Shown here piece after piece: positions 8,902 through 42,569 of a DNA stretch of 64,000 nucleotides. The notes beneath the pieces were generated by a model. The model was not told the DNA's origin. It worked only from the letters and a program-made list of their open reading frames with translations, and did not search any database. The stretch lies in the IMG/VR virus record IMGVR_UViG_3300032285_004008. One strand, given 5' to 3'. The translations under genes were made by a program, and so were the position numbers. This DNA is from a virus. Position 1 is the first letter of the stretch; every line of letters begins with the position of its first letter.

Positions 8902-9597
8902 CTACCGGCCGTCTCTTGTCCCATCGCGACGTAGTCCTTGTTCGTTGTACATCGAAATGAAGGATGGCAGCACGTAACGGTGCGGGCCTGCAAGAGGCGG
9001 CTTCACTCCGTGAGGGTAATCCGCGGTACCTGGGAAGAGCATCATCGCACCAGCCGGTACACGTAACTCGAGGTTCCTTGTTGGGAAGATGAGCTCGCCG
9101 CCGTTGTAGTCATCGTTGACGTAGATGATTGCAGCATATGCAACATATGGGTCCGTGTAGTTATCGACGTGCACTCTTAGCTCCGCGCCGTCGTATTGGC
9201 GCTGGATGGTACCCAGGCCGTTGTAGTACAAGAAATCGTACGGGCGGATGATGTCTTCAACTTGCCGGTTTAGCTTCTCCGTCAAATCACGAACCGTGTG
9301 AAGATGCAGATTCTTATCCGCCCAGTCCCAAGTGATCTCGAGCTTGCCGTCTTTATTCAGCTGCTCGATGTCACGCGTGCCGTGTTCTCGTTCGGCATGG
9401 TCGCGAAGGTGGTCCATGTAGTGGCCAAGCCAATCCTCCGGGCCGTATGTAACAACCTCGTCCATGATTCGCTTGCGGTCTTCAACATTGAGGAAATTCT
9501 TAATCATGAAGACGTGATCGTCGATCTCATCAACTTCCCAGCCCTGTGCTTCAATATCTGATTTGCGAACAGCTAGCATTTCCTGCTCCGTTAACAT
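8902..9597 (-). CDS. 2OG-Fe(II) oxygenase, prolyl-4-hydroxylase-like (#1)
   Basis: HVD..YVNDDYNGGELIF..HGV..RY. Confidence 0.9.
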   Translation of the reverse strand: MLTEQEMLAVRKSDIEAQGWEVDEIDDHVFMIKNFLNVEDRKRIMDEVVTYGPEDWLGHYMDHLRDHAEREHGTRDIEQLNKDGKLEITWDWADKNLHLHTVRDLTEKLNRQVEDIIRPYDFLYYNGLGTIQRQYDGAELRVHVDNYTDPYVAYAAIIYVNDDYNGGELIFPTRNLELRVPAGAMMLFPGTADYPHGVKPPLAGPHRYVLPSFISMYNEQGLRRDGTRDGR

Positions 9598-9600
9598 CCG

Positions 9601-10242
9601 TTACTCCTCGACGGTTTGTATGAATGAAGGCAGCACATACCTGGTTGGACCTGGCCCTACTGGATGCACGCCGTGTTTGTATTCGTTGGTTGTTGGAAAG
9701 AAGATGACGGATCCGGCCGGCGGCCTAACTTCCAACGAACGTGTTGGGAAGTACAGCTCGCCGCCAGTGTAATCATCATTCAAATAAAAGATTACCGCAT
9801 AGACAACAGCGGGTTCGGAATCACCATCCGTGTGAAGTTTGAGCTCCGCACCGAATGGCTGCCGCTGAGCATTACCGATGCCTCGGAATTCCAGGTGACC
9901 GTAAGGTTCAACTAGAGTCTGAATCTTTTCATCAAGTTCGTCAATAGTTGCTGATGGCTGCAGCTGGATCGTTTTATCAATCCACTCTTCATCCAGTGAG
10001 AGCACGCCGTCTTCGATGAGCTCCTCCATTGTTCGACCGAACTGACGCAGCGCGTACTCACGCATGCCGGTTACGTAGTTTTCTTTCCAGGCATCGTCAG
10101 TGTAGCTCTCGATCTCAGATAGCAGCAGGCCGCGTTCGTCGGATGTTAATACCCCCTTGACAAGAAACACCTGGTCATCGAGTACTTCCGGCGTCCAGCC
10201 AATTCGTTGGAAGTCTGAGATCTGCAACATGTTTTGAATCAT
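9601..10242 (-). CDS. 2OG-Fe(II) oxygenase, P4H-like (#2)
   Basis: HTD..YLNDDYTGGELYF..HGV..RY. Confidence 0.9.
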   Translation of the reverse strand: MIQNMLQISDFQRIGWTPEVLDDQVFLVKGVLTSDERGLLLSEIESYTDDAWKENYVTGMREYALRQFGRTMEELIEDGVLSLDEEWIDKTIQLQPSATIDELDEKIQTLVEPYGHLEFRGIGNAQRQPFGAELKLHTDGDSEPAVVYAVIFYLNDDYTGGELYFPTRSLEVRPPAGSVIFFPTTNEYKHGVHPVGPGPTRYVLPSFIQTVEE

Positions 10243-10252
10243 AGCACAGATT

Positions 10253-11101
10253 CTAATCGATCACAAAAAGCTTGGTCATCGCGGCGAGTCTCTTCAGGGT
10301 ACCGGCCTCCGGGGCTCCGTTAGCTTCAGATCCTACACGTCCGATGTTTCGTTGGAAGCGAGCAAACGCGCTCGCGGTAGCTCCATCCCACTTTCCTTCT
10401 TCAGCCCCTGAGATGTCGGTTACCTGGGAAAGCGCTAATTGAACAGCGGTTACGTGTTTGTTCTTAGATCCTGGCTGCAACTTCCTAACATCAACCGTTA
10501 GAAGTTGAGCTGCAGCTTCTGCTAGCTGAGCTAGTTCGATCCGATCTGCAGCGCTGAACTTCTTACGAATCCAGGCCGTTAGTTCCTTCCAGGCCGCCGC
10601 AGCTTGTACGTACAACAACTTCCGAATTCCTCGTTCGAAGTTAGCGGGCCGCAAGAAGATCGCAACATCAGTTGTGTATCGGATCCGTTGATGCACGCCG
10701 TCGAACTGTTGGTAAGAAGTTGATCCGGTCACGTTACCTTCAACGGTTAGGAACCGGCCGTTTGATTTGAACTCACGAGTATCTACTACCACGCCGCAGT
10801 GTGGCGCAGCAAAGCTTGATCCGTTAGTTACCGTGATTGATGAGAAGTTGAAGATCGCGATATCACCTGGCTGAGGCTTCTTACGAAGCTGGCCGTTACG
10901 TGCGAATTCCGCGAGCGCGGCTGGACTATAAACGAAGCTCGGTATATCCAGGCCGCTCTCCCGGGCGATCACATCAATGAACGAGCCGGACCACACCGTG
11001 GAATCATACCCTACGCGCTCGCCGAATATGTTCCGTCCAAGAAGCTCGGACTTATATCCGGTGTAGCGGCGGGCCGCTGCAATAAACGCATCTACCGTCA
11101 T
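10253..11101 (-). CDS. CHAP-like domain plus C-terminal peptidoglycan-binding domain (expected catalytic Cys is Ser)
   Basis: WSGSF, PQPGDIAIF, HCGVV, TVEGN; VQLAL..GKWD..T..A..RFQ PG-binding pattern. Confidence 0.75.
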   Translation of the reverse strand: MTVDAFIAAARRYTGYKSELLGRNIFGERVGYDSTVWSGSFIDVIARESGLDIPSFVYSPAALAEFARNGQLRKKPQPGDIAIFNFSSITVTNGSSFAAPHCGVVVDTREFKSNGRFLTVEGNVTGSTSYQQFDGVHQRIRYTTDVAIFLRPANFERGIRKLLYVQAAAAWKELTAWIRKKFSAADRIELAQLAEAAAQLLTVDVRKLQPGSKNKHVTAVQLALSQVTDISGAEEGKWDGATASAFARFQRNIGRVGSEANGAPEAGTLKRLAAMTKLFVID

Positions 11102-11146
11102 TATGTTCCTTCGTTAAAAGTTAAGGATCTGAGCTAGCTGCAGTTA

Positions 11147-11398
11147 CTAGTCCGTTTCAGGAAGTTGTTCGGAAGATAGCTCGAGTACTTGATTGTACAA
11201 GTTCTCGGCTTCCTGGGCAAGAGCGGTTAATCGGATGTGCTCGATACGGGTACCTGCATTGTTTATATCCGCTTTGAGGTTTTCGTACAAGTTGCTGGCC
11301 GCTATTACCAGATCTTCTTTTTGTTCTTTATTCACTAGCGGTTTCTTCCTTGTCCGTTTCAACGACTTCTGCATCAATGATGTCTTTTTCGGGTTCAA
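11147..11398 (-). CDS. Hypothetical protein (true start probably near 11334)
   Basis: ORF fills the gap between its neighbours. Confidence 0.5.
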   Translation of the reverse strand: MNPKKTSLMQKSLKRTRKKPLVNKEQKEDLVIAASNLYENLKADINNAGTRIEHIRLTALAQEAENLYNQVLELSSEQLPETD

Positions 11399-12775: not shown

Positions 12776-12777
12776 GG

Positions 12778-19788: not shown

Positions 19789-20607
19789 GTGGCAGCAGCA
19801 AAACCACGCGTTCAATATAAAGAACCGTTTGATAAGAAGCTTCGTAATGACCAGTTTGGCAATATGGCTCCTTACCGTTCACACCCACACCGCGGGACCG
19901 ACTGGTCTCCAAAGGAACTTAGCCCAATCCCATCTGCAGCCGAGGGTAAGGTTACTCAGGTATTCTGGTCTAACGTTCTAGGCTGGGTTGTAGAAATTCT
20001 TCACGCAGATGGCGTTTACTTCCAGTACTGCCACATCGCACCAAAGACTGTATGCGTTGACCCAGGCGAGACTGTAAAGCTTGGTCAGATTATTGGTAAA
20101 GTTGGTGGCGGTAAGAAGACTCCGTCGGGCTCTGCCTCAACTGGTGCCCACCTACATCTTGGAGCTTCACGCGTCAAGAACGGGCACCTTGCACCTTATG
20201 ACAAGCTGATGGACCCAACCAAGTGGATTGTTGCTAACCTAAATCCAGTAACCCCAGCGGCTGACGCAGCCCCTGCAACCCCTGCAGCCTCTGCAGAACC
20301 AGTAGCAGCAGCTACAACACCTGATGCAGCTCCGGCTGCACCAGCAGCACCTGTAGCAAATGCACCTGCAGCACCCGCAGACTTCCACTCAGAAGTTCTA
20401 AAGATTGACCTCTCAAAGCGTCCAAAGATTAAGCCAGGAGACAAGAGCAACTACGTTGCTTACGTTCAGGCTAAGTTTGGTCAGACCCCTACTGGCGTCT
20501 ATGACAACAAGCTAAAGAAGGCAGTTATTGATCTTCAGAAGAAGAACAAGTATGTAGCTGACGGTGTCTTCGGAAACCTAACCTGGGCAAAGGTTATTGA
20601 ACTCTAA
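19789..20607 (+). CDS. M23 peptidase with Ala/Pro linker and PG-binding domain (endolysin-like)
   Basis: HRGTD, YCH, STGAHLH; Q..N...ADGVFGNLTW. Confidence 0.85.
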   Translation: MAAAKPRVQYKEPFDKKLRNDQFGNMAPYRSHPHRGTDWSPKELSPIPSAAEGKVTQVFWSNVLGWVVEILHADGVYFQYCHIAPKTVCVDPGETVKLGQIIGKVGGGKKTPSGSASTGAHLHLGASRVKNGHLAPYDKLMDPTKWIVANLNPVTPAADAAPATPAASAEPVAAATTPDAAPAAPAAPVANAPAAPADFHSEVLKIDLSKRPKIKPGDKSNYVAYVQAKFGQTPTGVYDNKLKKAVIDLQKKNKYVADGVFGNLTWAKVIEL

Positions 20608-22917: not shown

Positions 22918-23451
22918 TTAGCTATTAATAGGCTCGAGAGTAGGCTGATCTGGCTCGATAACAAAGATATCTTCTGGGATAGCGTAACGGAAAGATCCTT
23001 CATTTATTGCACGAATATTGAATGCATGATCTTCAGTTGGAGAGAAGTAAATAATGCTTCCAGACTTAGGCTTTACTACAAACTCCTGATTTACGAAGTC
23101 GAGCTCCCCACCTTCATAGTCATCATTCACAATAATCAAGCATGACATAAGACAGCGATCATCTTCACGAAGGTGCGCATAGTGCACTACATCGTGCTCT
23201 CCAGGCTCACGACGCTGAATACGATTAGCGTTTCTAACTATATATTCTGACGGGTCAAATAGCGTACGTAGTCTATCTAATACAGCAGATGACAGCCCAA
23301 TGCTACTGATATTAGGGCTCTCGTCTCCTCGCTTATTCCAGTCTTCAGTTGTAAGGGTGGAGCAGTAGTTCAAAATTAGAGCTACCTCTTCTTGAGATAG
23401 AAAGTTTTCGGCAATGAAAATACCTGGGTGTACTTCGATTGGAGCATCCAT
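22918..23451 (-). CDS. 2OG-Fe(II) oxygenase fold, P4H-like (#3), degenerate iron ligands
   Basis: VNDDYEGGELDF..KPKSGS..RY retained; HxD and distal His not canonical. Confidence 0.8.
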   Translation of the reverse strand: MDAPIEVHPGIFIAENFLSQEEVALILNYCSTLTTEDWNKRGDESPNISSIGLSSAVLDRLRTLFDPSEYIVRNANRIQRREPGEHDVVHYAHLREDDRCLMSCLIIVNDDYEGGELDFVNQEFVVKPKSGSIIYFSPTEDHAFNIRAINEGSFRYAIPEDIFVIEPDQPTLEPINS

Positions 23452-23989: not shown

Positions 23990-24843
23990 TATGCCTCCAC
24001 GATCTTCTTGTAGGCAATCATGTAGCCAGTACTCGAGTACTTACCATCTTTATTCACACAATGAGGGCTACGATGCTCTGGCTCATATTTACCATCATTA
24101 CCTTCAGGCATACCATGGGTGTGATATTTCAAGCACTCATCACAATAGACATATACAATCTCTGCACCAGGGTAGCTAGGATTTGGTTCTGATTTATCAA
24201 TGTAGAGAATAGGTATATCAGACGTACCTTCTTTTACAGAGATATCAACTACATCGTCATACTCCACAGGGTATTCTTCAACGACGGTAATGACTAGCAT
24301 TCCATTATCTAAAAAGGCTTTACGAACCTTAGCCCACGGGGTTAGTAGGAAACTACGATGAAAGTTACGAGCAGCAATCCCGCTGTACTGAGTAGTTTCA
24401 GAAAGTACTACCGTCTCACTATCATCCGAGTTCTTATTAACCTTAAATTGAGCTGTACCTTTAGGAGCTTCACCATCAATATATAGGGTCCCACGGATCA
24501 AAGATACTGATAAATCACCTGCTGTAAACCCAGATACCGCCATAGTAATCTGATACTCAGTAGATTTTAGTGATGATTTACTATCATAAATGTGTTTAAC
24601 ATTAATCGTATGAAATGGATAATTATCCTTTTGAGGGTACTCAAAGAAGTCTGTCATCTCCTGTAGAAGAGATTGATACCCAATTGAATACTTATGTATT
24701 CCAGGATAGTTTTTTTCCATTTCAGCATTTAGTTTCTCTAGATAGTCAGCTACTCGCTCTGTATCTACAAGCCCAAATGGACGAGATGGTACATCTGCAT
24801 CTAGTGCTTTGACGCCATCTTCTTTTGTTCTATTTACTGCCAT
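23989..24843 (-). CDS. Small heat-shock protein (Hsp20/IbpA-like) with a C-terminal Cys/His domain
   Basis: NYPF..ITMAVSGF..GIAARNFHRSF..A.LDNGMLVI; C-terminal CDECLKYHTHG..HRSPHC. Confidence 0.85.
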   Translation of the reverse strand: MAVNRTKEDGVKALDADVPSRPFGLVDTERVADYLEKLNAEMEKNYPGIHKYSIGYQSLLQEMTDFFEYPQKDNYPFHTINVKHIYDSKSSLKSTEYQITMAVSGFTAGDLSVSLIRGTLYIDGEAPKGTAQFKVNKNSDDSETVVLSETTQYSGIAARNFHRSFLLTPWAKVRKAFLDNGMLVITVVEEYPVEYDDVVDISVKEGTSDIPILYIDKSEPNPSYPGAEIVYVYCDECLKYHTHGMPEGNDGKYEPEHRSPHCVNKDGKYSSTGYMIAYKKIVEA

Positions 24844-24957: not shown

Positions 24958-25647
24958 TTATTCTTCATTAAGTCCAGTAGCGGCGTCCACTATATTTTTC
25001 ACAGTTGACGGATGCCACTTACGTCCATTTTGAGTAGGGATTCCATCAGAATTAAGGGCGTCTGCTATTTCGCGGTAGGACAGTCCTTTAAGTCTAGAGC
25101 TTATGATTCTATCTTTGACTTCTTCTGGAGTCTTGTTCTTTGGCCCCATATCCACACCCCAGACTACCCCTCTATCTCTGCGGTCCTTGTGCACATCCTT
25201 CTGACGAGCAGCGATGATTCCTCGCTCCATCTCTGCCAAAGCACTCATCACAGTAACTACGAATCGTCCTTGGTACGTGCTAGTGTCAAGATTCAAGTCC
25301 AACATAATCAATCGCCAACCACCCTTGTTAGCGCGGTCAACAATATCCAAGAAGTCAGTTGTACTTCTGGCAAGTCGATCGATTCTAGTAACAATAAGGG
25401 CGTCTGCTTCTTTTTGCTCAAGCGTCTTCAAAGCAGCTGTCAAAGCAGGGCGTCCAGTAATACTCTTTCCAGAACGACCCTCCTCGCGCACCATCTCCCA
25501 TTCAGTGAACCCGTGGAACTCGGCAGCATTAACTAGCTGGCGTTCCTGAACATCCAACGAAACACCTTCATTAACCTGCATTGATGTACTTACTCGAGCA
25601 TAGAGAAGAGCTTTGCCAGGATTTATTTCTTCATTCATAGGAGCCAA
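24958..25647 (-). CDS. Serine recombinase (resolvase domain plus short recombinase domain)
   Basis: YARVST catalytic Ser, SGK...RP, RIDRLARS, AEMER. Confidence 0.9.
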   Translation of the reverse strand: MAPMNEEINPGKALLYARVSTSMQVNEGVSLDVQERQLVNAAEFHGFTEWEMVREEGRSGKSITGRPALTAALKTLEQKEADALIVTRIDRLARSTTDFLDIVDRANKGGWRLIMLDLNLDTSTYQGRFVVTVMSALAEMERGIIAARQKDVHKDRRDRGVVWGVDMGPKNKTPEEVKDRIISSRLKGLSYREIADALNSDGIPTQNGRKWHPSTVKNIVDAATGLNEE

Positions 25648-26378
25648 GATTCTGTGATGATAGTTGTACTTAGTTTACTTTTAGTAGGGAACTTAAGATC
25701 TTCCAACCACGTGTATCCATCCGATGCTGCTACCAAGGCATTAGTTTCTGTTTTATAGTTCAGACTATTGCTATCAATCGCCAGCACACAATGGGTGAAT
25801 ACCTCTTCAATATTTCTGTACTGCCTAGCTATATCTTCTAGACCATCTCCACCAGTTATATTCGCAAGTAAAATGCCATAAGGATTTAGCAGCTTTGATA
25901 GCTCAGAATAGAACCCCACTGTTGTTAGAGATTCTGGAGTACTAATCCCCATATAGATGTCAGCAATGATTAAATCAAAACTATTCGGTGGAAGAGCTCT
26001 AACAATACTTTTAGCATCGCCATATATGATTTCAGCAGGAGTCTTTAGAGGAGCAACTTCTTCTACAAGATCTACTATTTCTTTCTCAAGCTCAACAATA
26101 ACTTGCAGAGCATCAGGATACTTAGCACCTATATACCTAACTATACTCATAGCACCAGCACCTAGGTGTAGTACGGAAAGATCCTCGCTGCTAGGGAAAT
26201 AGTGGTCAATCATATCCCCTAGACGTCTAACGTAGTCCAGATTAAGAATGCTCGGATCTTCAGGCACAACGTTAGATTGCGTTACCCCGTCCACAATCAA
26301 ATCAAATCCCCCATAAAACTCAGACTTAGCCATCTTTGCAGATAGACCACTGATACTTAGATTTATAGGGGCGTCCAT
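25635..26378 (-). CDS. Spermidine synthase-like SAM-dependent transferase
   Basis: VDGVTQS, LHLGAGA, VELE, GDA, DLIIADIY. Confidence 0.8.
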   Translation of the reverse strand: MDAPINLSISGLSAKMAKSEFYGGFDLIVDGVTQSNVVPEDPSILNLDYVRRLGDMIDHYFPSSEDLSVLHLGAGAMSIVRYIGAKYPDALQVIVELEKEIVDLVEEVAPLKTPAEIIYGDAKSIVRALPPNSFDLIIADIYMGISTPESLTTVGFYSELSKLLNPYGILLANITGGDGLEDIARQYRNIEEVFTHCVLAIDSNSLNYKTETNALVAASDGYTWLEDLKFPTKSKLSTTIITESWLL

Positions 26379-26997: not shown

Positions 26998-28203
26998 ATG
27001 GAGATTATTGACCACGGTCATGACATTATCGAATACCGTAATGCCATAACCAACCCCTATGCTCTCATAGCCGATATTGAAGAGCTTGATAGTGATAGGG
27101 GCGTCTATCAAGTTTTACCTAAATTTACCGAGTGGAAAGAGGGCTATACCCAACCAGACGGGGTATGGCGAGCTGTAAACGTCAAAGGGCGTAACAAGGT
27201 ATTTAGGTGGAACGAGAGTCTACAAGTATCAGATAAGTCAGCTAGAGAATTAGCTTCTGAAAAAGTAATCGACCCGATAGTCAACCCCATTATAAAATGC
27301 TCCAATGATTATGCTGAAAAAGTAGGGATACCTCTACCAAATACTGTCAGCAAGAACGTTGATCTTAGGGTATATGCCACTGGAGAGAATCTAGGTGTTC
27401 ATGAAGACACCAATCACGGGGAGCCAGCTACAACCCACAGCCTAGTTATATATCTAAATGATGATTATGAAGGCGGAGAAATAAATTTTCCGAATATAGG
27501 ACTCAAAATAAAGCCACAGGCAGGCTCTATAGTTGCATTCCCAGCAACCACTCCCCACGAATCTATGAAGGTTACAAAAGGGGAAAAGTGGCACAGCCCA
27601 TACTTTTGGTACAGCAGCATCGGATTGATAACCTCAGGCAAAGAGGCACCCAGTATCGACAGATTCAGACCAACAACAAACATTGCTTTAATCGGCTTTG
27701 GACTAGTTGGTAGGGAAGTCTATAGACAGCTAACTAATCACCCAGACTATGAAAGTAAATTTATAGTCTCCCGCATTCAGGTTCTTAATTCAGATATTGA
27801 TAGGGGCGTCCAGCATAACGGGGTAATTATTACTAATGATTTAGCCTCCCTCCAAGAGACAGATATCTACAATACAGTCATTGACTGCTCTGAATACACA
27901 CCTCAATCTAAAGATCTAATAACTAACTTGCTAAAAAGAAAGATAAATCTACATACCTGCAGCAAAGGGTTGGTTGAAGAAAACTGGCAAGAGCTGGTAG
28001 AGCTAGCCAAAGCATCAGGATCAACTATCACTTTTAATTCGATTCCGGCGAGCGCCACTTTAGAGAAATATAAGGGCATAGACCTAACAGACAAGAACTT
28101 TTCTGAACACAATAGTCCCGATCTGTATATCTTTAGAGGAGCCGGACCTAAGGAAACTGCATCTTACATAGTTAATGATGTACTCAACCAGGCAACAATA
28201 TGA
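26998..28203 (+). CDS. P4H-like 2OG-Fe(II) oxygenase (#4) fused to a homoserine-dehydrogenase-like Rossmann domain
   Basis: HED..YLNDDYEGGEINF..HES; then IALIGFGLVG..GAGPKETASYIVND. Confidence 0.8.
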   Translation: MEIIDHGHDIIEYRNAITNPYALIADIEELDSDRGVYQVLPKFTEWKEGYTQPDGVWRAVNVKGRNKVFRWNESLQVSDKSARELASEKVIDPIVNPIIKCSNDYAEKVGIPLPNTVSKNVDLRVYATGENLGVHEDTNHGEPATTHSLVIYLNDDYEGGEINFPNIGLKIKPQAGSIVAFPATTPHESMKVTKGEKWHSPYFWYSSIGLITSGKEAPSIDRFRPTTNIALIGFGLVGREVYRQLTNHPDYESKFIVSRIQVLNSDIDRGVQHNGVIITNDLASLQETDIYNTVIDCSEYTPQSKDLITNLLKRKINLHTCSKGLVEENWQELVELAKASGSTITFNSIPASATLEKYKGIDLTDKNFSEHNSPDLYIFRGAGPKETASYIVNDVLNQATI

Positions 28204-28853
28204 TTAACCAGCTAGCTACATATAAATCAGGAACCCTAGAGGCAGTTGAACTATACAAGGGTATCTATCAAATTGACAATGCTCTGCAGCCAGAAGATAT
28301 TCTCTATTTAAGGACATTAGCTGAAGGATTGCCACAAGATAGTTGGAAAGAGCGAAATCATGAAGTTTTGCATTCCCAGGCGGTGGAGCTCTACGGTGAA
28401 GAGGCAGAAGAGGATATCGCTGCATACATCGAACGAAACCACTCCGCCTACTGGGATGACAAGATAATAAAGATTCCAGATACTGCTTTTAATGACAAAA
28501 TCAATCAGCGTCTAGCTCCCTTCTTCGAGGGGCTATATGATCTGGCGTATCTAGAAGAGGTACAGCGTCAGTATGAGGGTGTTGGTCTAGACGAGCACGT
28601 TGACGCTGAATATGACTCAAGAATCAAGTTCGCTGTAGTTATGTATATAAATGATGACTTTACTGGTGGAGAGTTATATTTCCCACTTAAAGGCATTGAA
28701 ATCAAACCAAAGGCTGGATCCTGCCTAATCTTTGATACAGGCAAAGAATTTCTCCACGGGGTGCGTAAAGTTGGTCCTGGACCAGGAAGATACGCTATGG
28801 CAGGTTTCGCCTGGGAATATGGCACTGGAGAAGGCTGGATAGCCTCGCATTAA
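28200..28853 (+). CDS. 2OG-Fe(II) oxygenase, P4H-like (#5)
   Basis: HVD..YINDDFTGGELYF..HGV..RY. Confidence 0.9.
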   Translation: MINQLATYKSGTLEAVELYKGIYQIDNALQPEDILYLRTLAEGLPQDSWKERNHEVLHSQAVELYGEEAEEDIAAYIERNHSAYWDDKIIKIPDTAFNDKINQRLAPFFEGLYDLAYLEEVQRQYEGVGLDEHVDAEYDSRIKFAVVMYINDDFTGGELYFPLKGIEIKPKAGSCLIFDTGKEFLHGVRKVGPGPGRYAMAGFAWEYGTGEGWIASH

Positions 28854-32219: not shown

Positions 32220-33107
32220 CTAGTCAAGTAGCTGTTCTATGCAATATGGTAGGTCTTCTATATTTCCATCATTAAAAAGATACCTATCAAACGGGTACTT
32301 ATTCAAAGCAGTCTCAGAAATATGGTCATTTGCTGGACCAACGCTTTCACGAATAATACGCCAGACTTCCCCGCCATTTGAGTAAATAGCGTCAGCCTCA
32401 TTAGGGAATCTGACGTCAGCAAATACTACCTTTTCACCGTCTGGAATTGCTGCAATTGCTGCATCAACCCAAAAATTTTCTCCCCACATCTCTCGTCCAA
32501 CTTCGGTCCCCATGCGCTGCATAAGGCTACGAATATCAGGACTTTGAGTTTTTAACTCCTCCCACCCCATGAGATCAACTGCCGTAGCAAGATGCATGCT
32601 GTAGCCATTTAGATCTACGGTGGGATTCAGTCTGTATAAGGCACCACGCATTTGATCTGCAAAAGACACTTTAGTGTAACCATGCGCAGCAACCAAATAG
32701 TTTGCAACAGTATCCTTACCGCTACGTGCCCAGCCAGACAAGCCAATCATTCTAATTCGGGGAATCAATTCTCCGTTTTTTAATACCATCAAAGGAAGTC
32801 CAAGTGCTTTAGCTACTGTTACTTCAAGAGTAGCTCCTTTAGATTTCTCCCACCCAGGGAGCAAGCAAAGCATGTCTACGTCCATAACATGAGGCAAGTC
32901 ACGCTTCATATAATATGACCAAAGGTTATTAGGGGATTCTGGAGTACCAGCTGACTGTAGTGCTTCTTGAACAGTTGCTCCATCATTGTGTGCTGGATTT
33001 ATTACGTCATATCCTAGCTTTTCAAGCTCACGCTCTGCTTCAAAAAATGCTGGAAAATTGAAATCCTCCATGCCACTCATAGGGCCAGCGATATACACCT
33101 TAGTCAT
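32220..33107 (-). CDS. DUF4406 (deoxyribosyltransferase-like) fused to a dNMP kinase
   Basis: VYIAGPMSG..NFPAF..WEKSKGATLE; IGLSGWARSGKDT..DVRFPNE..HISE. Confidence 0.85.
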   Translation of the reverse strand: MTKVYIAGPMSGMEDFNFPAFFEAERELEKLGYDVINPAHNDGATVQEALQSAGTPESPNNLWSYYMKRDLPHVMDVDMLCLLPGWEKSKGATLEVTVAKALGLPLMVLKNGELIPRIRMIGLSGWARSGKDTVANYLVAAHGYTKVSFADQMRGALYRLNPTVDLNGYSMHLATAVDLMGWEELKTQSPDIRSLMQRMGTEVGREMWGENFWVDAAIAAIPDGEKVVFADVRFPNEADAIYSNGGEVWRIIRESVGPANDHISETALNKYPFDRYLFNDGNIEDLPYCIEQLLD

Positions 33108-33133
33108 TGGATTCCTTTAGTTATATAGATATT

Positions 33134-33769
33134 TTAAGACCAGTTAGGTACTAGATCTATAAAATAGTTTGTAGTGTGTTTTGTAGTTAAAGTGATGTTG
33201 TATCTAGGAACATCTCCCTTAACAGGCTTTACCTCATGAGTATAGTCGGCATTTCCAGAAAAGACTACAAGTGAATTCGAGTTAGGTTTAAATAAAATAT
33301 CTTTATTTTTAAAATATAGCTCCCCACCCTCGTAGTCGTCATTGATATAAAAGTTAATAGCACTTTTTATGTCAGAATTATTTTCATCATCTCGATGCTC
33401 CCCCAGATATCCACCAGCCGTATATCTTTTAACGACTCCCATGTATCCTTTAGGTGTCATATTAGGGAATCCATAAAAATTTAATTTTTCGCTTATGGAT
33501 TTAAAAAATTCAGATTCTTTTAGCGGAACAGCCACTATTGAAGATTTTGCCTTAGTAGTATTTTTTACAGAAGTATCTATAAAATAATCCTGCCTAATTT
33601 TATCTGTTGGCCACATATCTTCTGCAAGTATTTTAAAAAATTCTTTAGTAGACCTATCCCAGTCTATCTTTGAAAAATCATCATTTAGATATGAAAAAAG
33701 AGCGCTAATCTCGAAATTAGTTAGAAAATTTTCGTAAACAAAAATTCCGGGATAGCGCTCTTCAAACAA
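33134..33769 (-). CDS. 2OG-Fe(II) oxygenase, P4H-like (#6)
   Basis: HRD..YINDDYEGGELYF..HEV..RY; AT-rich gene. Confidence 0.85.
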   Translation of the reverse strand: MFEERYPGIFVYENFLTNFEISALFSYLNDDFSKIDWDRSTKEFFKILAEDMWPTDKIRQDYFIDTSVKNTTKAKSSIVAVPLKESEFFKSISEKLNFYGFPNMTPKGYMGVVKRYTAGGYLGEHRDDENNSDIKSAINFYINDDYEGGELYFKNKDILFKPNSNSLVVFSGNADYTHEVKPVKGDVPRYNITLTTKHTTNYFIDLVPNWS

Positions 33770-33778
33770 AATATATGT

Positions 33779-34021
33779 CTACTTTGATTCTTCAGACTCT
33801 ACTACTGGAGCTGCAGTAGCCCACTGAGCCAAAACTACATAATCCAAGCTGTAGCATGTAGAGATAGTAGAGTTATTTTCTCCACCCTGAATAATTGTAA
33901 TAGTCTTATCGCTAATATGGCTAACTACACCGCGGTGTTGTGTAGAAGCCTCTCCTGGAACAGCGATCTTTAAAACTACAACAGAATTCAAGATTCCATC
34001 TGGAAAAATATTATTTGACAT
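33779..34021 (-). CDS. Hypothetical protein
   Basis: AGGAG RBS. Confidence 0.6.
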   Translation of the reverse strand: MSNNIFPDGILNSVVVLKIAVPGEASTQHRGVVSHISDKTITIIQGGENNSTISTCYSLDYVVLAQWATAAPVVESEESK

Positions 34022-34040
34022 TTTATCTCCTAATTGTTAA

Positions 34041-34589
34041 TTAAATTGTAGCTCCACCGATTTCTCGGTTACAAGCAGTTAGTTCACCAGTCTGAAGTGC
34101 ATCAAGAACTCGCAAAGCCTCCTGAGCATTACGACCAGTATCTAGACCATTAACAGTGACATGCTGAATAATATTTTCTGGGTCAACTAAGAATGTTGCA
34201 CGAAGTGCAACACCAGACTCATGACGAACACCAAGCTGATCAACTAAAGACCCATTCCAGCTATCAATGCGAGTATCAGCAAACATAATACTGGTCAGCT
34301 TAGCTAGATCTGGGTGAGCTTCCTTCCAAGCAAGCTTGCAGAACTCATTATCGGTTGAACCAGACATGAGAACTGCACCACGAGCTTCGAACTCAGCGTT
34401 TAGCTTGTCATACTCGATAATCTCGGTAGGGCAAACAAAAGTAAAGTCCTTAGGGTAGAAAACGATAACCTTCCACTTGCCAGGAAACGACTTTTCAGTA
34501 ATTTCCTCGAAGTAGGTTCCATCGTGAAGGACGTATGGATATACCCCAACAACTTTAAATTCGCCTAGTTTATCTCCAACAGTAAGCAT
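34041..34589 (-). CDS. ahpC: Peroxiredoxin, AhpC type
   Basis: FYPKDFTFVCPTE; start MLTVGD at 34589. Confidence 0.95.
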   Translation of the reverse strand: MLTVGDKLGEFKVVGVYPYVLHDGTYFEEITEKSFPGKWKVIVFYPKDFTFVCPTEIIEYDKLNAEFEARGAVLMSGSTDNEFCKLAWKEAHPDLAKLTSIMFADTRIDSWNGSLVDQLGVRHESGVALRATFLVDPENIIQHVTVNGLDTGRNAQEALRVLDALQTGELTACNREIGGATI

Positions 34590-34810
34590 TATGCTCTTAC
34601 TCCGATCTTTTCTATGACCGCGTCGGCGATCGTTTCCGCATGCTGGATAGTCTGATCTTTGATAGAAATATTCCATCCACCAACTACCTCCGGTTCAATG
34701 TTTGCATAGTTTCCATTAAGTTTTGTTGAAACAATGTCTGCAACTAGTGGAGCTATGTTCTCCGCAGACATTGGGCTAGAATAATCAATTCCACCAACTT
34801 TAGTCATCAT
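34589..34810 (-). CDS. Hypothetical protein
   Basis: Coupled to ahpC. Confidence 0.6.
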   Translation of the reverse strand: MMTKVGGIDYSSPMSAENIAPLVADIVSTKLNGNYANIEPEVVGGWNISIKDQTIQHAETIADAVIEKIGVRA

Positions 34811-35184: not shown

Positions 35185-35784
35185 TTATAGCTTCTTTTTA
35201 ACAAACGCGGTACTAGAATACCTAATGCCAGAGGATACTGGCAATACCCCATGCGAGTAATCAGGTGTACCCGGGTGAATTACTAAGCTTCCAATTTTAG
35301 GCTTTATTGCAATTTTTAGATCAGGATAGTATATTTCCCCACCCTCGTAATCATCATTCAAATACAAGACCATCCCATGGGGAGTAGCTATATTTTTATT
35401 TAGACTTGGTCCATCATCTGAATGAACCTCCAAACCTACCCCAGATCGCATAGTTACTACAGTACCTAGATTTATATACTCGATATTAGGATCTTTTTCA
35501 TATCTATCTTCGTAGATCTCGATAGATCTTTTGACAATATCTTTAACTATTAATTGAACTTTAGTGTCTGGATGATGGAACAGATATATGTATGGAGAAT
35601 CATCGTAAGCTTTTTTACCATCATTAATGTATTCATATAAATTATCAGCATATGATCGGTCTGATAGAGCCAACTCTACAGCTTGAACTAGGTAGTTACA
35701 TAAATCTGCTGATAGAAAATCTTCAACATAAGTGATCTCAGTTCCTTGAATAGAACTAGAAAAACTAGAAATATCATGATGCAT
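35185..35784 (-). CDS. 2OG-Fe(II) oxygenase, P4H-like (#7)
   Basis: HSD..YLNDDYEGGEIYY..HGV..RY. Confidence 0.9.
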   Translation of the reverse strand: MHHDISSFSSSIQGTEITYVEDFLSADLCNYLVQAVELALSDRSYADNLYEYINDGKKAYDDSPYIYLFHHPDTKVQLIVKDIVKRSIEIYEDRYEKDPNIEYINLGTVVTMRSGVGLEVHSDDGPSLNKNIATPHGMVLYLNDDYEGGEIYYPDLKIAIKPKIGSLVIHPGTPDYSHGVLPVSSGIRYSSTAFVKKKL

Positions 35785-36382
35785 TAGCTACAAAATACCT
35801 TCCATACTCAGTGTATGGAATTACAGTAGAGTCAATCCACCAATCTTCATGAGGGTGACGTTGGACTAGCTTGTAACCATAACTAGATAAGACAGCACGC
35901 TGGGCATCTCGCTCAATAGTATTTTTATAGTTATTCATGCAGTCATGCTCGAATTGAATTACAGTAAATCTATAAGTACTAAGTGGTAAATTGATTAACC
36001 CTTGTAGACATAATGCTGATCCACCAACTTCATTTCCCAGCTTGTCATACCCAGCATCCATATCTACCTGCAAGTAGTCAATTTGCTTGGGAAAATTATT
36101 TTCTTCAAAATATTTACGAAAATCAAAAGTAGTTGCATCATGCAATACGCAAGGGTTTTTACGATTAGAGTTAAATTCTTTAGCATAGTCGGGGACAACC
36201 TCTAGAGATACTCCAGACCAGTTAAAGCCATTTTCTAGGAGCCAGGTATTGCTACCCTTTTTAGAATGAAAAGCACCAAGCTCTACATAATAGCCATTCT
36301 TTTTTTCATTTAAAACGTTAATAACAAAAGACTCGTTGCCGCCGCCACCACTATTACTTTCCGGATAGATACGATAATTCAT
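35774..36382 (-). CDS. FkbM-like SAM methyltransferase
   Basis: YYVELGA..SNT..LE..W.G..E; IDYLQVD; FEHD. Confidence 0.8.
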   Translation of the reverse strand: MNYRIYPESNSGGGGNESFVINVLNEKKNGYYVELGAFHSKKGSNTWLLENGFNWSGVSLEVVPDYAKEFNSNRKNPCVLHDATTFDFRKYFEENNFPKQIDYLQVDMDAGYDKLGNEVGGSALCLQGLINLPLSTYRFTVIQFEHDCMNNYKNTIERDAQRAVLSSYGYKLVQRHPHEDWWIDSTVIPYTEYGRYFVANAS

Positions 36383-37715: not shown

Positions 37716-39158
37716 CTATCTGCCAGTAATTACCTTAGTTTTATAGTGTTCTTCCCACAGGGCTACATCATTCAAATCATTAAGAATTGGCTGTCCCTTT
37801 ATATTCAGACTTGTATTAAGAAGTACAGGAACTCCAGTCAATTCATAGAATTTTTTTAAGACAGCGTAGAGCCCGGGGTGCTGCTGAGCATTAACAGTTT
37901 GAACCCTAGAAGTACCATCATGATGCACAACCGACGGGATTGCTTCTGGCTTTAAGCATTTCGGGGTATATTGCATATACGGAGATGCATAATCCATATC
38001 AAACCATTCAGATGCATACTCCTCCATAACTACAGGAGCAAACGGTCTAAATAGCTCACGTTTCTTTATTTTATTTACTTTATCCTTGATGTCGGGATCG
38101 CGAGGATCAGCGAGAATACTACGGTTACCCAGAGCTCTTGGACCATATTCAGCTCTTCCGTTCGCTACTGGAGCTATTTTGTTTTTAATAAGAGCGTCTA
38201 CTATTTCATCCACCGGATAGTCGCCAGGAATGTTAGTACCAAGGTATGGACCCCTCCAGTTTAGTTTCTTTTCATAAAAAGCTGCTGCTGCCCCTAAAGA
38301 TGAACCAGCATCACCAGGGTTAGGCATAATCCATATATTAGGAAATATATCGTGAAGCAGTGTATTTGCCTTGCTATTGAGAGCACACCCACCAGCAAAA
38401 ACTAAATTATCGCTCCATGATTCTTGTCTAGCAATGTAGACAAAATCCCATAGGCGATCTTCATAGACTCTCTGCACAGCTGCCGCTATATGGAACTTAT
38501 CATTATCAGTTATATCTTGGCCCCAGTCATCGATACCCTTATGAAAGTTATAGGTTTGCTTGTACACAGAAGGGAAGTATTTAGAGACCTTTTCAAAATA
38601 GAGATCAGGATCACCATAAGCAGCCATGCCCATCATGATGTATTCTTCTTCATTTGGTTTTAGCCCAATTAGATCAGTAAAGGCCGAATAGAAAAGACCA
38701 AAACTAAATGGATACTTCCAACGCTTAACTTGCTTAAGCTCATCTCCTTTGCCATGCCATATAGAGCTAGTAGTAAATTCGCCAATAGCATCAAGAACAA
38801 TAACTACAGCATCATCAAATGGAGAGGTGTAATACCCCGCCGCAGCGTGGGAGTGGTGGTGGTACGCAACATATGTAGGAATGCCTTTAAGCTCAGGCAT
38901 ACTAGTATAAAAAGGTTTTCCACCACCTAAACCTCCTCTAGAAAATATACGCCACTTCTTAAGCCAGCGATCTTCATAATAGGCAATTCTATCGGGGGTG
39001 CCATATGAAAGTGCTTCAAGGATAAGATCACGATTGGTATACCAATCATTTTTAATTTTGGAATATCGCTCAGCATGAGCAGCAAATAAAATTTTGCCAT
39101 CTTCAATTAAAGTAATTGAAGCATCATGAGAAGTCTCATTTATACCTAGAATTTTCAT
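37716..39158 (-). CDS. Carbamoyltransferase (NodU/CmcH family)
   Basis: HDAS..ERYS..HHHSHAA..DAIGE..MGMAAYG..EYGPRALGNRSILADP..FRPFAP..NTSLN. Confidence 0.95.
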   Translation of the reverse strand: MKILGINETSHDASITLIEDGKILFAAHAERYSKIKNDWYTNRDLILEALSYGTPDRIAYYEDRWLKKWRIFSRGGLGGGKPFYTSMPELKGIPTYVAYHHHSHAAAGYYTSPFDDAVVIVLDAIGEFTTSSIWHGKGDELKQVKRWKYPFSFGLFYSAFTDLIGLKPNEEEYIMMGMAAYGDPDLYFEKVSKYFPSVYKQTYNFHKGIDDWGQDITDNDKFHIAAAVQRVYEDRLWDFVYIARQESWSDNLVFAGGCALNSKANTLLHDIFPNIWIMPNPGDAGSSLGAAAAFYEKKLNWRGPYLGTNIPGDYPVDEIVDALIKNKIAPVANGRAEYGPRALGNRSILADPRDPDIKDKVNKIKKRELFRPFAPVVMEEYASEWFDMDYASPYMQYTPKCLKPEAIPSVVHHDGTSRVQTVNAQQHPGLYAVLKKFYELTGVPVLLNTSLNIKGQPILNDLNDVALWEEHYKTKVITGR

Positions 39159-39166
39159 AACAAGTC

Positions 39167-39787
39167 CTAATAGTTGAAATGCTTCGTGCTAGAGATATTT
39201 CCTTTACGGGAATAGAAAAAAACTAAATTTTTTCTCTCTCCCGAGAGAACTTCAGTTACCTCATGTATATGATCTATATCGCCTTTAAAAACTACTAGCT
39301 GACCCTTCTTAGGCTCAATAGCTAGATTCTGAAGATGAAATTTAAGCAATCCACCAGAGAAATCAATAGAGTGATTATTTAAATACAGAAGAGCTGAAAA
39401 TTCTAATTCTTCAGGGACCCCGTCGTCTCTCCAAGTAGAGCCATCCAATTTTACAGAGTCTGCATGAAGCTCGTTTTTGGCCCCTTTAGACATACTTTGA
39501 TAGGTGCAGTTCACTAAATCTAGTTCTAAATTAAAAAACTGTTCGGCATACGAGTGCACATTTTTGTACACAGACTCTAAATCAGAGACATATTGCTCTT
39601 TATCGGAAGAATAGTTTTTTACAGCCCTAGCGGAGGTGCCTACTTTAGAAGCATCCTCTGATGTGTCATAACCTAAGGCACCTTTAATACCCCCCTGAGG
39701 AGTAGGGGTAGCTAGCTCATCAAGAAAGATAGACAAGCTATCTGCCAAATCAGTAGGAATAAACCCATCAACTATAGAAATATTCAT
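39167..39787 (-). CDS. 2OG-Fe(II) oxygenase, P4H-like (#8)
   Basis: HAD..LLYLN..FSGGLLKF..HEV..R. Confidence 0.85.
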   Translation of the reverse strand: MNISIVDGFIPTDLADSLSIFLDELATPTPQGGIKGALGYDTSEDASKVGTSARAVKNYSSDKEQYVSDLESVYKNVHSYAEQFFNLELDLVNCTYQSMSKGAKNELHADSVKLDGSTWRDDGVPEELEFSALLYLNNHSIDFSGGLLKFHLQNLAIEPKKGQLVVFKGDIDHIHEVTEVLSGERKNLVFFYSRKGNISSTKHFNY

Positions 39788-39806
39788 AAAGCCATCCTAC
39801 TTATTG

Positions 39807-39880
39807 TCGAGAGTGTGGGACTTGAACCCACGACGACCGAATTATGAGTTCGGGGCTCTAACCAGCTGAGCTAACTCCCG
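39807..39880 (-). tRNA. tRNA with CAT anticodon (elongator Met or Ile2)
   Basis: CGGGAGTTAGCTCAGCTGGTTAGAGC..CTCATAA..GGTTCAAGTCC; 5' end overlaps the dut 3' end. Confidence 0.9.
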
Positions 39881-40304
39881 TTGAGCCAAAGCCACCATCT
39901 CCACGATCTGACTCTGGAAGTTCTTGCACTACTTCAAAATCTGCTCTAATAAATTCTTGAATAACAAGTTGAGCAATTCGATCTCCACGATTTACTACAA
40001 ATACATCATTTCCAGTATTGTACAGAATTACACCAATCTCGCCGCGATACCCAGAATCCACAGTCCCTGGAGTATTCAATACCGTAATGCCATTCTTTAG
40101 TGCGAGTCCACTACGAGGGTGCACGAATGCAACATAGTTGCTAGGTAGTGCAATTCTAACGCCAGTCTTGACTAAAGCCCTTTCTCCAGACTTAATTGCC
40201 AGATTTTCCGCTGAGCGTAGATCAGCTCCCGCATCGCCAAACTTAGCGTAACTTGGCAGTAGATCCGGTGATTCAGCAGTAATTAGCACAGTAGTCATAG
40301 ACAA
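39858..40304 (-). CDS. dut: Trimeric dUTPase
   Basis: AGADL, PRSGLA, GTVDSGYRGE, RIAQL, RGDGGFGSTG. Confidence 0.97.
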   Translation of the reverse strand: MSMTTVLITAESPDLLPSYAKFGDAGADLRSAENLAIKSGERALVKTGVRIALPSNYVAFVHPRSGLALKNGITVLNTPGTVDSGYRGEIGVILYNTGNDVFVVNRGDRIAQLVIQEFIRADFEVVQELPESDRGDGGFGSTGVSSAG

Positions 40305-40329
40305 TACCCTAGCATAGTAAACTAGAAAA

Positions 40330-40920
40330 ATGACTAGTTACTCTAAAGAAGATATCAAAAAAGCTATAGCCGAGGCAAATGCCAAGGAAATTGCTGTATC
40401 TTTTAAGGGAATGGCCCCCATCACGCCCGGCTGGGATAAATTTATCCACTTAATACATTCAGAGATTCACGGGGCACCGAATACCACTATCCCAAATTCT
40501 CCCTTAGAAGAGAGAATGATAAATGGCGTGATAATCAGAAATCTTTTCTATCTAACTGTAAGAATATCTAAATTAGAGATGCTATCTGAATCAAGTGCAC
40601 TTATAGAAGTATTTAGCGATATTTTTAATACAGAAATACTTCCAGTCTCGGCATTTATAAATATTATTGGTGGGGAAAAGCCAGGAGAAGCTCATAAAGA
40701 TAATAGGGAGACTATTTTCTGGCAATGCCATGGCGTGTCAGAATGGACGCTATACGAGACACCAGAATCGCCAAAATATGAGACATCAGAATTAAAAATA
40801 TATAAAAAGATAAGGCTAGATCCGGGGGATGTTTTATATCTAAGAAATCAAGGAATACACTCAGTGCAGAATTTTGGACCAAGAGCATCTATTGCTTTTA
40901 TGCCTGATAATCGTAACTAG
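40330..40920 (+). CDS. JmjC/cupin-like 2OG oxygenase (A)
   Basis: HKD.RETIFWQCHG..W..LDPGDVLY..HSV..PRA. Confidence 0.75.
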   Translation: MTSYSKEDIKKAIAEANAKEIAVSFKGMAPITPGWDKFIHLIHSEIHGAPNTTIPNSPLEERMINGVIIRNLFYLTVRISKLEMLSESSALIEVFSDIFNTEILPVSAFINIIGGEKPGEAHKDNRETIFWQCHGVSEWTLYETPESPKYETSELKIYKKIRLDPGDVLYLRNQGIHSVQNFGPRASIAFMPDNRN

Positions 40921-40993
40921 AGCCTCCAACAGGACTTGAACCCGTCACCTACGCATTACAAGTGCGTCGCTCTACCAGATGAGCTATAGAGGC
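40921..40993 (-). tRNA. tRNA-Thr(TGT)
   Basis: GCCTCTA acceptor, ACGCA-CTTGTAA-TGCGT anticodon arm. Confidence 0.95.
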
Positions 40994-41050
40994 AGTAAAA
41001 GAATTTAGTATCAGGAAACATATTTGTCTGATGATCTTATGATTCTTTTG

Positions 41051-41121
41051 AGCGGATAGCGAGAATCGAACTCGCACCTTCAACTTGGAAGGATGAGGCA
41101 CTACCATTATGCAATATCCGC
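41051..41121 (-). tRNA. tRNA-Gly(TCC)
   Basis: GCGGATA acceptor, CTTCCAA loop, GTTCGATTC. Confidence 0.93.
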
Positions 41122-41297
41122 AGCAGCTGCGTCCAGCTACTTTTATTTTATATCATTCTTATAGTCACCGCTACACCAATTCGCGAAATTGGTCCTCCAA
41201 CGTTAGTTCCTTTTGTGGGACGTGGGATATGCTGACTGCAATACATCATCACGGCAGTAGATTATTTTTATATATAAAAATTTTTTTGTCAATTTTG

Positions 41298-41370
41298 CTG
41301 CCCCACCTGGGATCGAACCAGGGACCTGCCGATTAACAGTCGGACGCTCTGCCAGCTGAGCTATAGGGCA
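41298..41370 (-). tRNA. tRNA-Asn(GTT)
   Basis: TGCCCTA acceptor, CTGTTAA loop, GGTTCGATCC. Confidence 0.93.
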
Positions 41371-41380
41371 AAAACCTTAT

Positions 41381-41494
41381 TTACTTTTTAGTCACAAGAC
41401 GACGCTTTTCAGCATCCCAAACCTTTGGACGCTTCTTTGAAGCCTTACCGCTAGGTCGATCGCTATTGCGGGCACCTTTTGTCTTTGCTGCCAT
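41381..41494 (-). CDS. 37-aa highly basic protein absent from the ORF track
   Basis: MAAKTKGARNSDRPSGKASKKRPKVWDAEKRRLVTKK; GAAGGA RBS. Confidence 0.65.
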   Translation of the reverse strand: MAAKTKGARNSDRPSGKASKKRPKVWDAEKRRLVTKK

Positions 41495-41509
41495 TTTGTC
41501 CTTCTTTCG

Positions 41510-41821
41510 TGGAGATGGCGGGAATTGAACCCGCGTCCTAACATATTCTATCTATTCTTCTACAAGCTTAGGCTCTACCAGCCACGGTACTACAAAGGCG
41601 GGATCTTAAGGTCTCCTGCTGCAACCTTTCGGTTGTTCTATTTATTTAAGACCTGACTGCCCAGCTAGAACTACTGCTTTGTCAGGGGCATGAGCTACTA
41701 CTAAGCAGCTAGTGCGAATGTTGAACGTGATTCAGCATTTATTTTTTTGCCCGATCTAAGAGTACGGGCGTCTCTGCTTGCTTCACTAGACGTCAGATGC
41801 CAGTCGAAACCAGTCATCCCC
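41510..41821 (-). ncRNA. ssrA: tmRNA; tag (A)AESRSTFALAA at 41736-41701
   Basis: 5' GGGGATGACTGGTTTCGAC; 3' GACGCGGGTTCAATTCCCGCCATCTCCA; tag ORF ends ALAA-TAG. Confidence 0.95.
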
Positions 41822-41894
41822 TCTATTTAATTGTAAATATATAATAGCACACAAGGGCTCAATAACAACAATAAATACAAGATAGAATCTTTTT

Positions 41895-42569
41895 ATGATT
41901 GAATTTGACAGATTAGAAGAAGTACGTGCTGGTATAGAGAAAGTACGTAATGGTGGATTAGCTGTAGTTTTTAAGAATCTATTTCCTATAGTCCCCACCT
42001 GGGAAGACTTTATAAACCATGCTCAGCTAGAGATTTCCACCCCTCCAGGTAATATCCCTGCTCAGCCATACGAGGAGAGGTTTATTAATGGAGTACTTTT
42101 AAGAAATCTATTCTATTTAATGGTCTCTAATCCAAATGATAAGGTATTCCCTCAGAGTCGTATAGTTAGAGACGTCTTCAACGAACTATTGGAAGACGAG
42201 CTTTGGCCTGTCAGTGCATTTGTTAATTTCCTTGGCGGAGAGAAGCCAATTGCCCCCCACTGCGATATGCGCGAGACTGTTTACTGGCAGTGTCAGGGAA
42301 AAGTGACCTGGAAGATTTATAAGCAAGAAAATATCAACGAAGAGCGTGCCTACGGAATAAAGCCTGATATGGAACTACATCTAGAACCAGGTGATGTAGT
42401 ATTTGTTGGTTTTATGGTAGGCCACTCTGTAGTGACCCTGGGGCCTCGCGCAGCTATTGGATTCCAGCATAAACAAGATGATCGAGGTCGTTTTGATGAA
42501 AGCAATAAGATTATTAAGAAACACTACGAAGATCTTGGAATAGATGTAAATTTCAGTAGAAACTCTTAA
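41895..42569 (+). CDS. JmjC/cupin-like 2OG oxygenase (B), paralog of A
   Basis: HCD.RETVYWQCQG..W..LEPGDVVF..HSV..PRA; shares EER.INGV..RNLFYL with A. Confidence 0.75.
   Translation: MIEFDRLEEVRAGIEKVRNGGLAVVFKNLFPIVPTWEDFINHAQLEISTPPGNIPAQPYEERFINGVLLRNLFYLMVSNPNDKVFPQSRIVRDVFNELLEDELWPVSAFVNFLGGEKPIAPHCDMRETVYWQCQGKVTWKIYKQENINEERAYGIKPDMELHLEPGDVVFVGFMVGHSVVTLGPRAAIGFQHKQDDRGRFDESNKIIKKHYEDLGIDVNFSRNS

Follow-up and report, generated by a model that had tools for sequence, protein, structure and literature searches.

A 64,000-nucleotide stretch of the virus record IMGVR_UViG_3300032285_004008, hereafter the window, carries ten genes for putative oxygenases dependent on 2-oxoglutarate (2OG) and Fe(II) in the region 8902–42569. 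Eight of these genes resemble prolyl 4-hydroxylases (P4H; o1–o8) and two are of the JmjC type (j1 and j2). We assign a probability of about one half to the explanation that the ten genes are dispersed copies from a lineage-specific radiation of stand-alone protein hydroxylases, the core of which is a cassette linked to a repeat-protein gene. The radiation would be represented here by seven intact P4H-type enzymes, one degenerate P4H-like paralog, and two minimal JmjC proteins of the ribosomal-oxygenase type, while its core would be the tandem cassette directly behind a gene for an FN3-(PPYF)n-Hint protein, starting at 63915 and continuing past the window. Each intact enzyme is predicted to hydroxylate a side chain of a protein, with proline as the most probable target, by means of Fe(II), 2OG, and O2. 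The new elements are the interleaving of scattered and cassette copies in the protein tree, the match of the o2 fold to peptidyl-prolyl hydroxylases, and the match of the j2 fold to ribosomal-protein hydroxylases.

Scattered oxygenase genes and a repeat-linked cassette

The source of the window is an uncultured freshwater phage of about 140 kb, and homology searches located the window proteins on a 139,740-bp contig. Comparison of the window with 50,697 deposited phage genomes gave no near DNA match, the sole match being a tRNA. A close relative, G006, is a complete IMG/VR genome with terminal repeats (153,711 bp) that is syntenic with the window at 65–83% nucleotide identity, the nucleotide synteny extending to the window end. 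G007 and the 30-kb fragment G004 are further close relatives.

Analysis of the open reading frames (ORFs) and their Pfam matches confirmed the eight P4H-like and two JmjC-like genes that an earlier sequence-only reading had listed (Table 1), the gene at 22918 (o3) being sub-threshold and devoid of the iron residues. Seven of the eight P4H-like genes score 36.1–46.7 bits against PF13640 (cut-off 27 bits), and both JmjC genes pass the 22-bit cut-off of PF08007 (JmjC_2). The eight P4H-like proteins are mutual paralogs in blastp comparisons (E 1e-61 for o1 and o2, 1e-5 to 1e-33 for the others), with most pairs aligning over the C-terminal 55–100 residues only. As had also been read from the sequence, the paralogs differ in their N-terminal halves and in GC content, which ranges from 0.32 (o6) to 0.53 (o1) and partly tracks the regional GC. 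A hidden Markov model built from the eight proteins detected no further P4H-like copy inside the window; an eleventh P4H-like gene begins at 63915 and extends beyond the window. The ten genes occupy 34 kb on the two strands; more than 40 unrelated genes separate them, and just two tandem pairs occur.

The iron and 2OG ligands are kept in nine of the ten genes, with the exception of o3. Among the P4H-like proteins, the HxD...H triad and the 2OG-binding Arg/Lys are present in o1, o2, and o4–o8 and absent in o3. The G006 ortholog of o3 has LxA..Y in place of the triad, and the ORF is intact in both phages. Since the iron triad is missing in both proteins, o3 is probably a degenerate, non-catalytic P4H-like paralog. 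Assignment of o3 as an Fe/2OG halogenase, in which an HxA/G variant goes with retention of both His residues, was rejected, as o3 has no distal His and its G006 ortholog lacks the first His too. Comparison with the G006 orthologs revealed purifying selection on o1 and o2, with ratios of nonsynonymous to synonymous substitution rates (dN/dS) of 0.10 and 0.15, respectively; dN/dS is usable for o1, o2, and o8 only, because dS is saturated for o3, o4, and o7.

The window contains a single Pro-rich protein, to which the sequence-only reading had rightly drawn attention. It combines FN3 domains and a Hint-like end with a 76-residue tract made up exclusively of P, F, and Y. Directly downstream of the gene for its homolog, P4H-like genes stand in tandem in 15 of 15 IMG/VR loci, and the same layout is found in six further contigs, that is, in 21 of 21 related phage loci examined. 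In the complete genome G008, one of the six, a 305-residue FN3-(PFF)n protein, missed by the homology search, stands right before two P4H genes. For the window phage, the sequence beyond position 64000 is deduced from the relatives and from the last 86 bases of the window. The 29 readable residues of the 63915 gene match the first cassette P4H of G006 and G004, indicating that this phage possesses a dedicated P4H cassette besides the ten genes. The cassette has ten members in G006, where at least 15 PF13640 matches and 2 JmjC genes are found in total; in this lake-phage lineage, the family amounts to at least 15–17 copies per genome. The co-occurrence counts are confounded by the shared ancestry of the contigs and, for that reason, are not taken as independent evidence. 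The adjacent cassette is a more obvious modifier of the repeat protein than the ten scattered genes, which lie 20–55 kb upstream of the repeat gene instead of in tandem behind it.

A maximum-likelihood tree built from 71 P4H-like sequences of seven phages revealed that scattered and cassette copies interleave, which places the scattered genes and the repeat-linked cassette of the lake phages in the same protein radiation. The proteins o1, o2, and o5 form a group with their scattered orthologs whose sister is an orthologous group of cassette proteins from G001, G013, and G017 (bootstrap 90; Shimodaira–Hasegawa-like approximate likelihood ratio test [SH-aLRT] 97), and o4 falls inside a clade (96/94) otherwise composed of cassette groups. 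The cassette label changes at least four times on well-supported branches. From this tree, we propose repeated movement of copies between the cassette and the accessory arm. Micro-synteny agrees in part with the tree, as o7 lies beside orf202, a conserved gene whose homologs in G013, G015, and G017 are located at the end of the P4H cassette. Positional orthologs of o1, o2, o3, o4, o7, j1, and j2 are present in G006 with 45–83% amino-acid identity. The scattered set is nevertheless fluid, because o5 lacks a counterpart in G006, the block containing o6 is absent, the relative of o8 is located elsewhere, and G006 carries additional P4H-like copies without counterpart in the window.

Several observations weigh against a radiation centered on the cassette. 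The scattered set differs between relatives as close as the window phage and G006. The placement of o7 and o8 with cassette groups is weakly supported (88/42 and 87/87), as are the deep nodes of the tree. The scattered genes are mostly encoded on the strand opposite to the repeat gene, among early or metabolic-type genes, and no paralogs of the cassette's two non-oxygenase partner genes were found in the window. The homoserine-dehydrogenase-type domain fused to o4 may point to a small molecule, such as an amino acid, as substrate. In addition, no PPYF-Hint homolog was found in deposited phages, including the 141 cyanophage or marine-virus records with o2 homologs.

Predicted folds and candidate substrates

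Among the eight P4H-like proteins, the double-stranded beta-helix fold of P4H was judged on the model of o2, which has a high predicted local distance difference test score (pLDDT; Table 1). Foldseek comparison revealed that the closest PDB structures are the B. anthracis P4H (5hv4; E 6e-12, template modeling [TM] score 0.60/0.65), the PBCV-1 collagen P4H (5c5t; E 2.7e-11), and the Chlamydomonas P4H (3gze), a P4H whose structure is bound to a (Ser-Pro)5 peptide. Small-molecule enzymes, including PolD, PiuC, and PasI, rank lower. Across the peptidyl P4H structures 5hv4, 5v7y, 5c5t, and 3gze, the same double-stranded beta-helix is matched with E 6e-12 to 3e-9 and a TM score of about 0.6, and these enzymes share with the phage proteins the HxD..H plus basic-residue motif and a similar size. 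They differ in that the identity is only 15–19% and that the N-terminal halves of the phage proteins are phage-specific; for the phage enzymes, hydroxylation is a predicted activity.

Analysis of the j2 model (pLDDT 79.5) indicated that its closest structures are NO66, MINA53, and YcfD, all ribosomal-protein hydroxylases. The JmjC catalytic domain and the HxD..H motif are common to j1, j2, and the YcfD/RoxA, NO66, and MINA53 enzymes, and residues H122, D124, and H177 of j2 are invariant in 18 homologs. The matched chains comprise 360–460 residues, compared with 196 and 224 residues for j1 and j2, and the target-normalised TM scores are 0.25–0.35. By their length, j1 and j2 correspond to the catalytic domain alone and would thus be without the extra C-terminal domains of YcfD, NO66, and MINA53. 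Because these dimerisation and winged-helix domains are missing, j1 and j2 are classed as resembling ribosomal oxygenases and not as ribosomal oxygenases proper. In the ESM Atlas, the clusters closest to them consist of viral JmjC proteins about 200 residues long.

These matches are consistent with another explanation, in which the scattered copies, above all the JmjC genes, hydroxylate translation proteins of host or phage (EF-Tu, ribosomal proteins) during host takeover. Not only are the top structural matches of j2 all ribosomal-protein hydroxylases, but the best match of o2 is to the B. anthracis P4H family, of which the entry 5v7y is titled as modifying EF-Tu, and three tRNA genes as well as a genuine tmRNA gene lie between j1 and j2. 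The missing C-terminal domains of j1 and j2 argue against such targets, and the adjacency to the tRNA and tmRNA genes may be coincidental, since the latter are located on the opposite strand. We consider this explanation rather improbable. A combined version appears very unlikely to us, in which a late cassette tailors the fibre tract and the scattered set, including the JmjC genes, hydroxylates host EF-Tu or ribosomal proteins and thereby reprograms protein synthesis.

Taken with the kinship to the cassette, the folds of o2 and j2 suggest that the scattered genes probably encode protein hydroxylases. For o1, o2, and o5, and with less confidence for o4 and o7, the leading candidate substrate would be the Pro/aromatic tract of the fibre-module protein, because the nearest relatives of these enzymes are located in a tract-linked cassette elsewhere. 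The tract is a candidate, not an established, substrate. The substrates of the scattered enzymes may also have diverged, which their differing N-terminal halves would fit.

The sequence-only reading had proposed a protein-modification pathway in which the ten oxygenases, together with sulfo-, carbamoyl-, and methyltransferases, first hydroxylate and then decorate the Pro tract at 63116–63343. Protein hydroxylation is indeed the best-fitting chemistry, in view of the o2 and j2 models and the cassette kinship. The P4H-type fold of o2 and the tract as the only Pro-rich sequence in the window are in line with such a pathway, as is the location of o8 only 8 bases upstream of the carbamoyltransferase gene, a position that a P4H-like gene also occupies in G007. 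Moreover, hydroxylation followed by sulfation of fibre-like proteins has been proposed for bacterial clusters (Iyer et al. 2010, PMC2938197). The ten genes are not, however, one pathway or operon with these transferases. They show no operon structure, given the unrelated genes interleaved among them; the P4H-carbamoyltransferase adjacency is missing in G006, and the paralog concerned is not the same in the window as in G007; and a dedicated cassette adjoins the tract. Among the presumed tailoring enzymes, the carbamoyltransferase is solid. The sulfotransferase-like match at 7406 narrowly misses its cut-off (26.2 versus 27 bits) and lies outside the region of the ten genes, as does the only well-scoring class I methyltransferase (50049–50858). 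The gene at 25635–26378, taken for a tailoring methyltransferase, is spermidine-synthase-like (NCBIfam, 65 bits against a cut-off of 40). The FkbM, SGNH-like, and glycosidase-like propeller proteins were not recovered with Pfam, PHROGs, or NCBIfam, the best match being GH130 (E 0.058) for 49099–50052. We therefore give the single-pathway proposal little credence.

Oxygenase sets of other phages

Full-length o2-type proteins are present in at least 574 IMG/VR loci. Among deposited phages, full-length o2 homologs were found only in the 141 cyanophage or marine-virus records, at 28–30% identity; the PF13640 matches counted in two cyanophages, S-RIM32 (9) and S-SCSM2R (11), are scattered. Matches to o2-type proteins in cellular genomes cover the catalytic core only, so the N-terminal halves appear phage-specific and the bacterial gene context yields no functional lead. 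The sole full-length o2-type match in the cellular collection (34% identity, residues 25–207) is on a contig of a Bacteroidia metagenome-assembled genome, JBBALJ010000003.1 (L047), which may represent a prophage or else a phage contig binned by mistake. No BLAST-detectable homolog of j2 was found in deposited phages.

Counts of 2OG-Fe(II) oxygenases in the genomes of marine cyanophages go back to 2007–2010, and comparable oxygenase batteries are already known from these phages. Synechococcus phage Syn9 carries a ten-dioxygenase array consisting of nine classical 2OG enzymes of several families and one JmjC protein of the MINA/NO66 clade, for which peptide modification was proposed (Iyer, Abhiman, de Souza and Aravind 2010, PMC2938197). 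Both Syn9 and the window phage are large aquatic phages with about ten 2OG oxygenases, MINA/NO66-type JmjC proteins included (eight plus two in the window). The window copies are scattered and comprise two JmjC genes, whereas Syn9 has a tandem array with tryptophan halogenases, a family that did not turn up among the window ORFs scanned; unlike Syn9, the window lineage possesses, in addition, a distinct tandem cassette linked to a Pro/aromatic-repeat protein. Of 16 cyanomyoviruses, 14 were reported to carry numerous 2OG-Fe(II) oxygenases (Sullivan et al. 2010, PMC3037559), and S-SZBM1 carries nine scattered copies (PMC9146016). Similar to the cyanomyoviruses, in which the copies number from several to nine or more, the window phage has divergent copies scattered beside tRNAs and the genes for Hsp20, cobS, peroxiredoxin, and carbamoyltransferase. 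It differs in its phage backbone, in the higher total of its relative G006, and in the link of its paralogs to a repeat-protein cassette.

This likeness bears on a further explanation, according to which the ten genes are accessory genes of the cyanophage type that act on small molecules or nucleic acids, or merely consume 2OG, with no tie to the fibre protein. The only relatives in deposited phages are cyanomyovirus 2OG-Fe(II) oxygenases, from genomes with 9–11 scattered copies and no PPYF-Hint homolog, and the window contains a cyanophage accessory set (CobS-like AAA and VWA proteins, Hsp20, peroxiredoxin, denV, and carbamoyltransferase). The homoserine-dehydrogenase-type domain of o4 and the neighboring genes, which include ThyX, dUTPase, and a deoxynucleotide monophosphate kinase, point in the same direction, and DNA-repair and 2OG-level roles have been proposed for cyanophage oxygenases (PMC3037559, PMC9146016). 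The closest solved structures, however, are peptidyl hydroxylases and not AlkB, TET, or small-molecule enzymes; the Tet_JBP match of o5 reaches 18.5 bits, far under the cut-off of 34.9; and the scattered copies interleave with the tract-linked cassette in the tree. We regard this explanation as unlikely. Under the preferred reading of a protein hydroxylase radiation, the cassette kinship provides a concrete peptide to test for cassette and scattered enzymes alike, and the copies kept in the cassette can be compared with the copies that left. If the scattered copies act elsewhere, the lineage would show a phage enzyme family acquiring new substrates.

Gene neighborhoods and other features of the window

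The features discussed here are listed in Table 1.

Table 1. Oxygenase genes of the window and associated features
Feature	Position	Strand	Basis
o1, P4H-like 2OG-Fe(II) oxygenase, tandem with o2	8902–9597	-	PF13640 37.2 bits; HxD..H..R intact; G006 ortholog 77% identical
o2, P4H-like oxygenase	9601–10242	-	PF13640 43.4 bits; model pLDDT 92
Lysin-like gene directly upstream of o2	10253–11101	-	PHROG endolysin E 5e-9; weak CHAP and peptidoglycan-binding matches
o3, probably degenerate P4H-like paralog	22918–23451	-	PF13640 23.3 bits; HxA, no aligned distal His
o4, P4H-like domain fused to homoserine-dehydrogenase-type NAD-binding domain	26998–28203	+	PF13640 46.7 bits; PF03447 E 9.7e-9
o5, P4H-like oxygenase, start overlaps o4 stop by 4 bases	28200–28853	+	PF13640 43.5 bits
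o6, P4H-like oxygenase, GC 0.32	33134–33769	-	PF13640 45.6 bits
o7, P4H-like oxygenase	35185–35784	-	PF13640 36.1 bits; start overlapped 11 bases by end of orf202
orf202, conserved protein without assigned family	35774–36382	-	ORF call
NodU/CmcH-type carbamoyltransferase	37716–39158	-	PF16861 E 1.5e-53; PF02543 E 3e-41
o8, P4H-like oxygenase, 8 bases upstream of carbamoyltransferase	39167–39787	-	PF13640 43.7 bits
j1, minimal JmjC (ribosomal-oxygenase-like), 196 residues	40330–40920	+	PF08007 27.9 bits; 40% identical to j2
j2, minimal JmjC (ribosomal-oxygenase-like), 224 residues	41895–42569	+	PF08007 30.3 bits
FN3-(P)P[YF]F repeat-Hint protein, candidate substrate	62477–63823	+	Translation; fn3 domain; homologs in 15 IMG/VR loci
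First gene of tandem P4H cassette, cut by window end	63915–64000	+	29-residue N-terminus matches G006 and G004 cassette P4H

The lysin-like gene next to o2 is distinct from the M23 lysin gene at 19789–20607, and the module formed by a lysin-like gene and two P4H genes is common to the window, G006, and G011. The C-terminal domain of o4 also matches the NCBIfam homoserine dehydrogenase (E 7e-11). This domain is absent from the G006 ortholog, and in G007 such a domain adjoins a P4H gene; no relative of the fusion protein was found in IMG/VR by peptide patterns. The o5 protein groups with that of G011 42680–43348 in the tree. The closest G006 homolog of o8, at its different location, is 35% identical.

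The GC content of o6 is the lowest of all genes in the window. A block comprising o6, an 80-residue ORF, and an AhpC-type peroxiredoxin gene (33134–34676, minus strand) is absent from G006, and the flanking window positions 33108 and 34823 are continuous in G006 at 24520/24530. The orf202 protein has no match in Pfam, PHROG, NCBIfam, or PDB and is highly conserved, with an identity of about 60% over more than 500 protein clusters from 90–115-kb phage contigs. The module of orf202, o7, and an M78-like gene is kept in G006 and G007.

In and around the region of the ten genes, the window encodes a CobS-like AAA and VWA pair, a class Ib ribonucleotide reductase (nrdI, E, F), dUTPase, ThyX, denV (pyrimidine-dimer glycosylase), thioredoxin, peroxiredoxin, Hsp20, a serine recombinase, an S8 subtilase, and the M23 lysin in addition to the lysin-like gene. 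At 24958–26378 (minus strand), the serine recombinase gene (resolvase, E 3e-33) adjoins the spermidine-synthase-like gene, and this stretch differs from G006. A fusion of a DUF4406 domain (nucleoside deoxyribosyltransferase-like) with a deoxynucleotide monophosphate kinase is encoded at 32220–33107 (minus strand), beside denV, the S8 subtilase, ThyX, and dUTPase. Promoter and terminator scans of the window gave no usable signal, with 32 promoter-like sites against 29.9 expected and 46 against 49.1 expected.

Six tRNA genes and one tmRNA gene are present in the window. The tmRNA gene (41507–41821, minus strand; Rfam RF00023, 128.6 bits against a cut-off of 47) encodes the tag AESRSTFALAA, is covered by a nucleotide match to G006, and lies between j1 and j2 together with tRNA-Thr, tRNA-Gly, and tRNA-Asn. 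The tail-fibre module occupies the plus strand from about 51 kb on. It includes a gene at 54479–58201 for a fibre protein of 1240 residues with an Mtd_N (major tropism determinant) N-terminal domain, in which internal DNA repeats at about 55.3–56.5 kb match several registers in G006.

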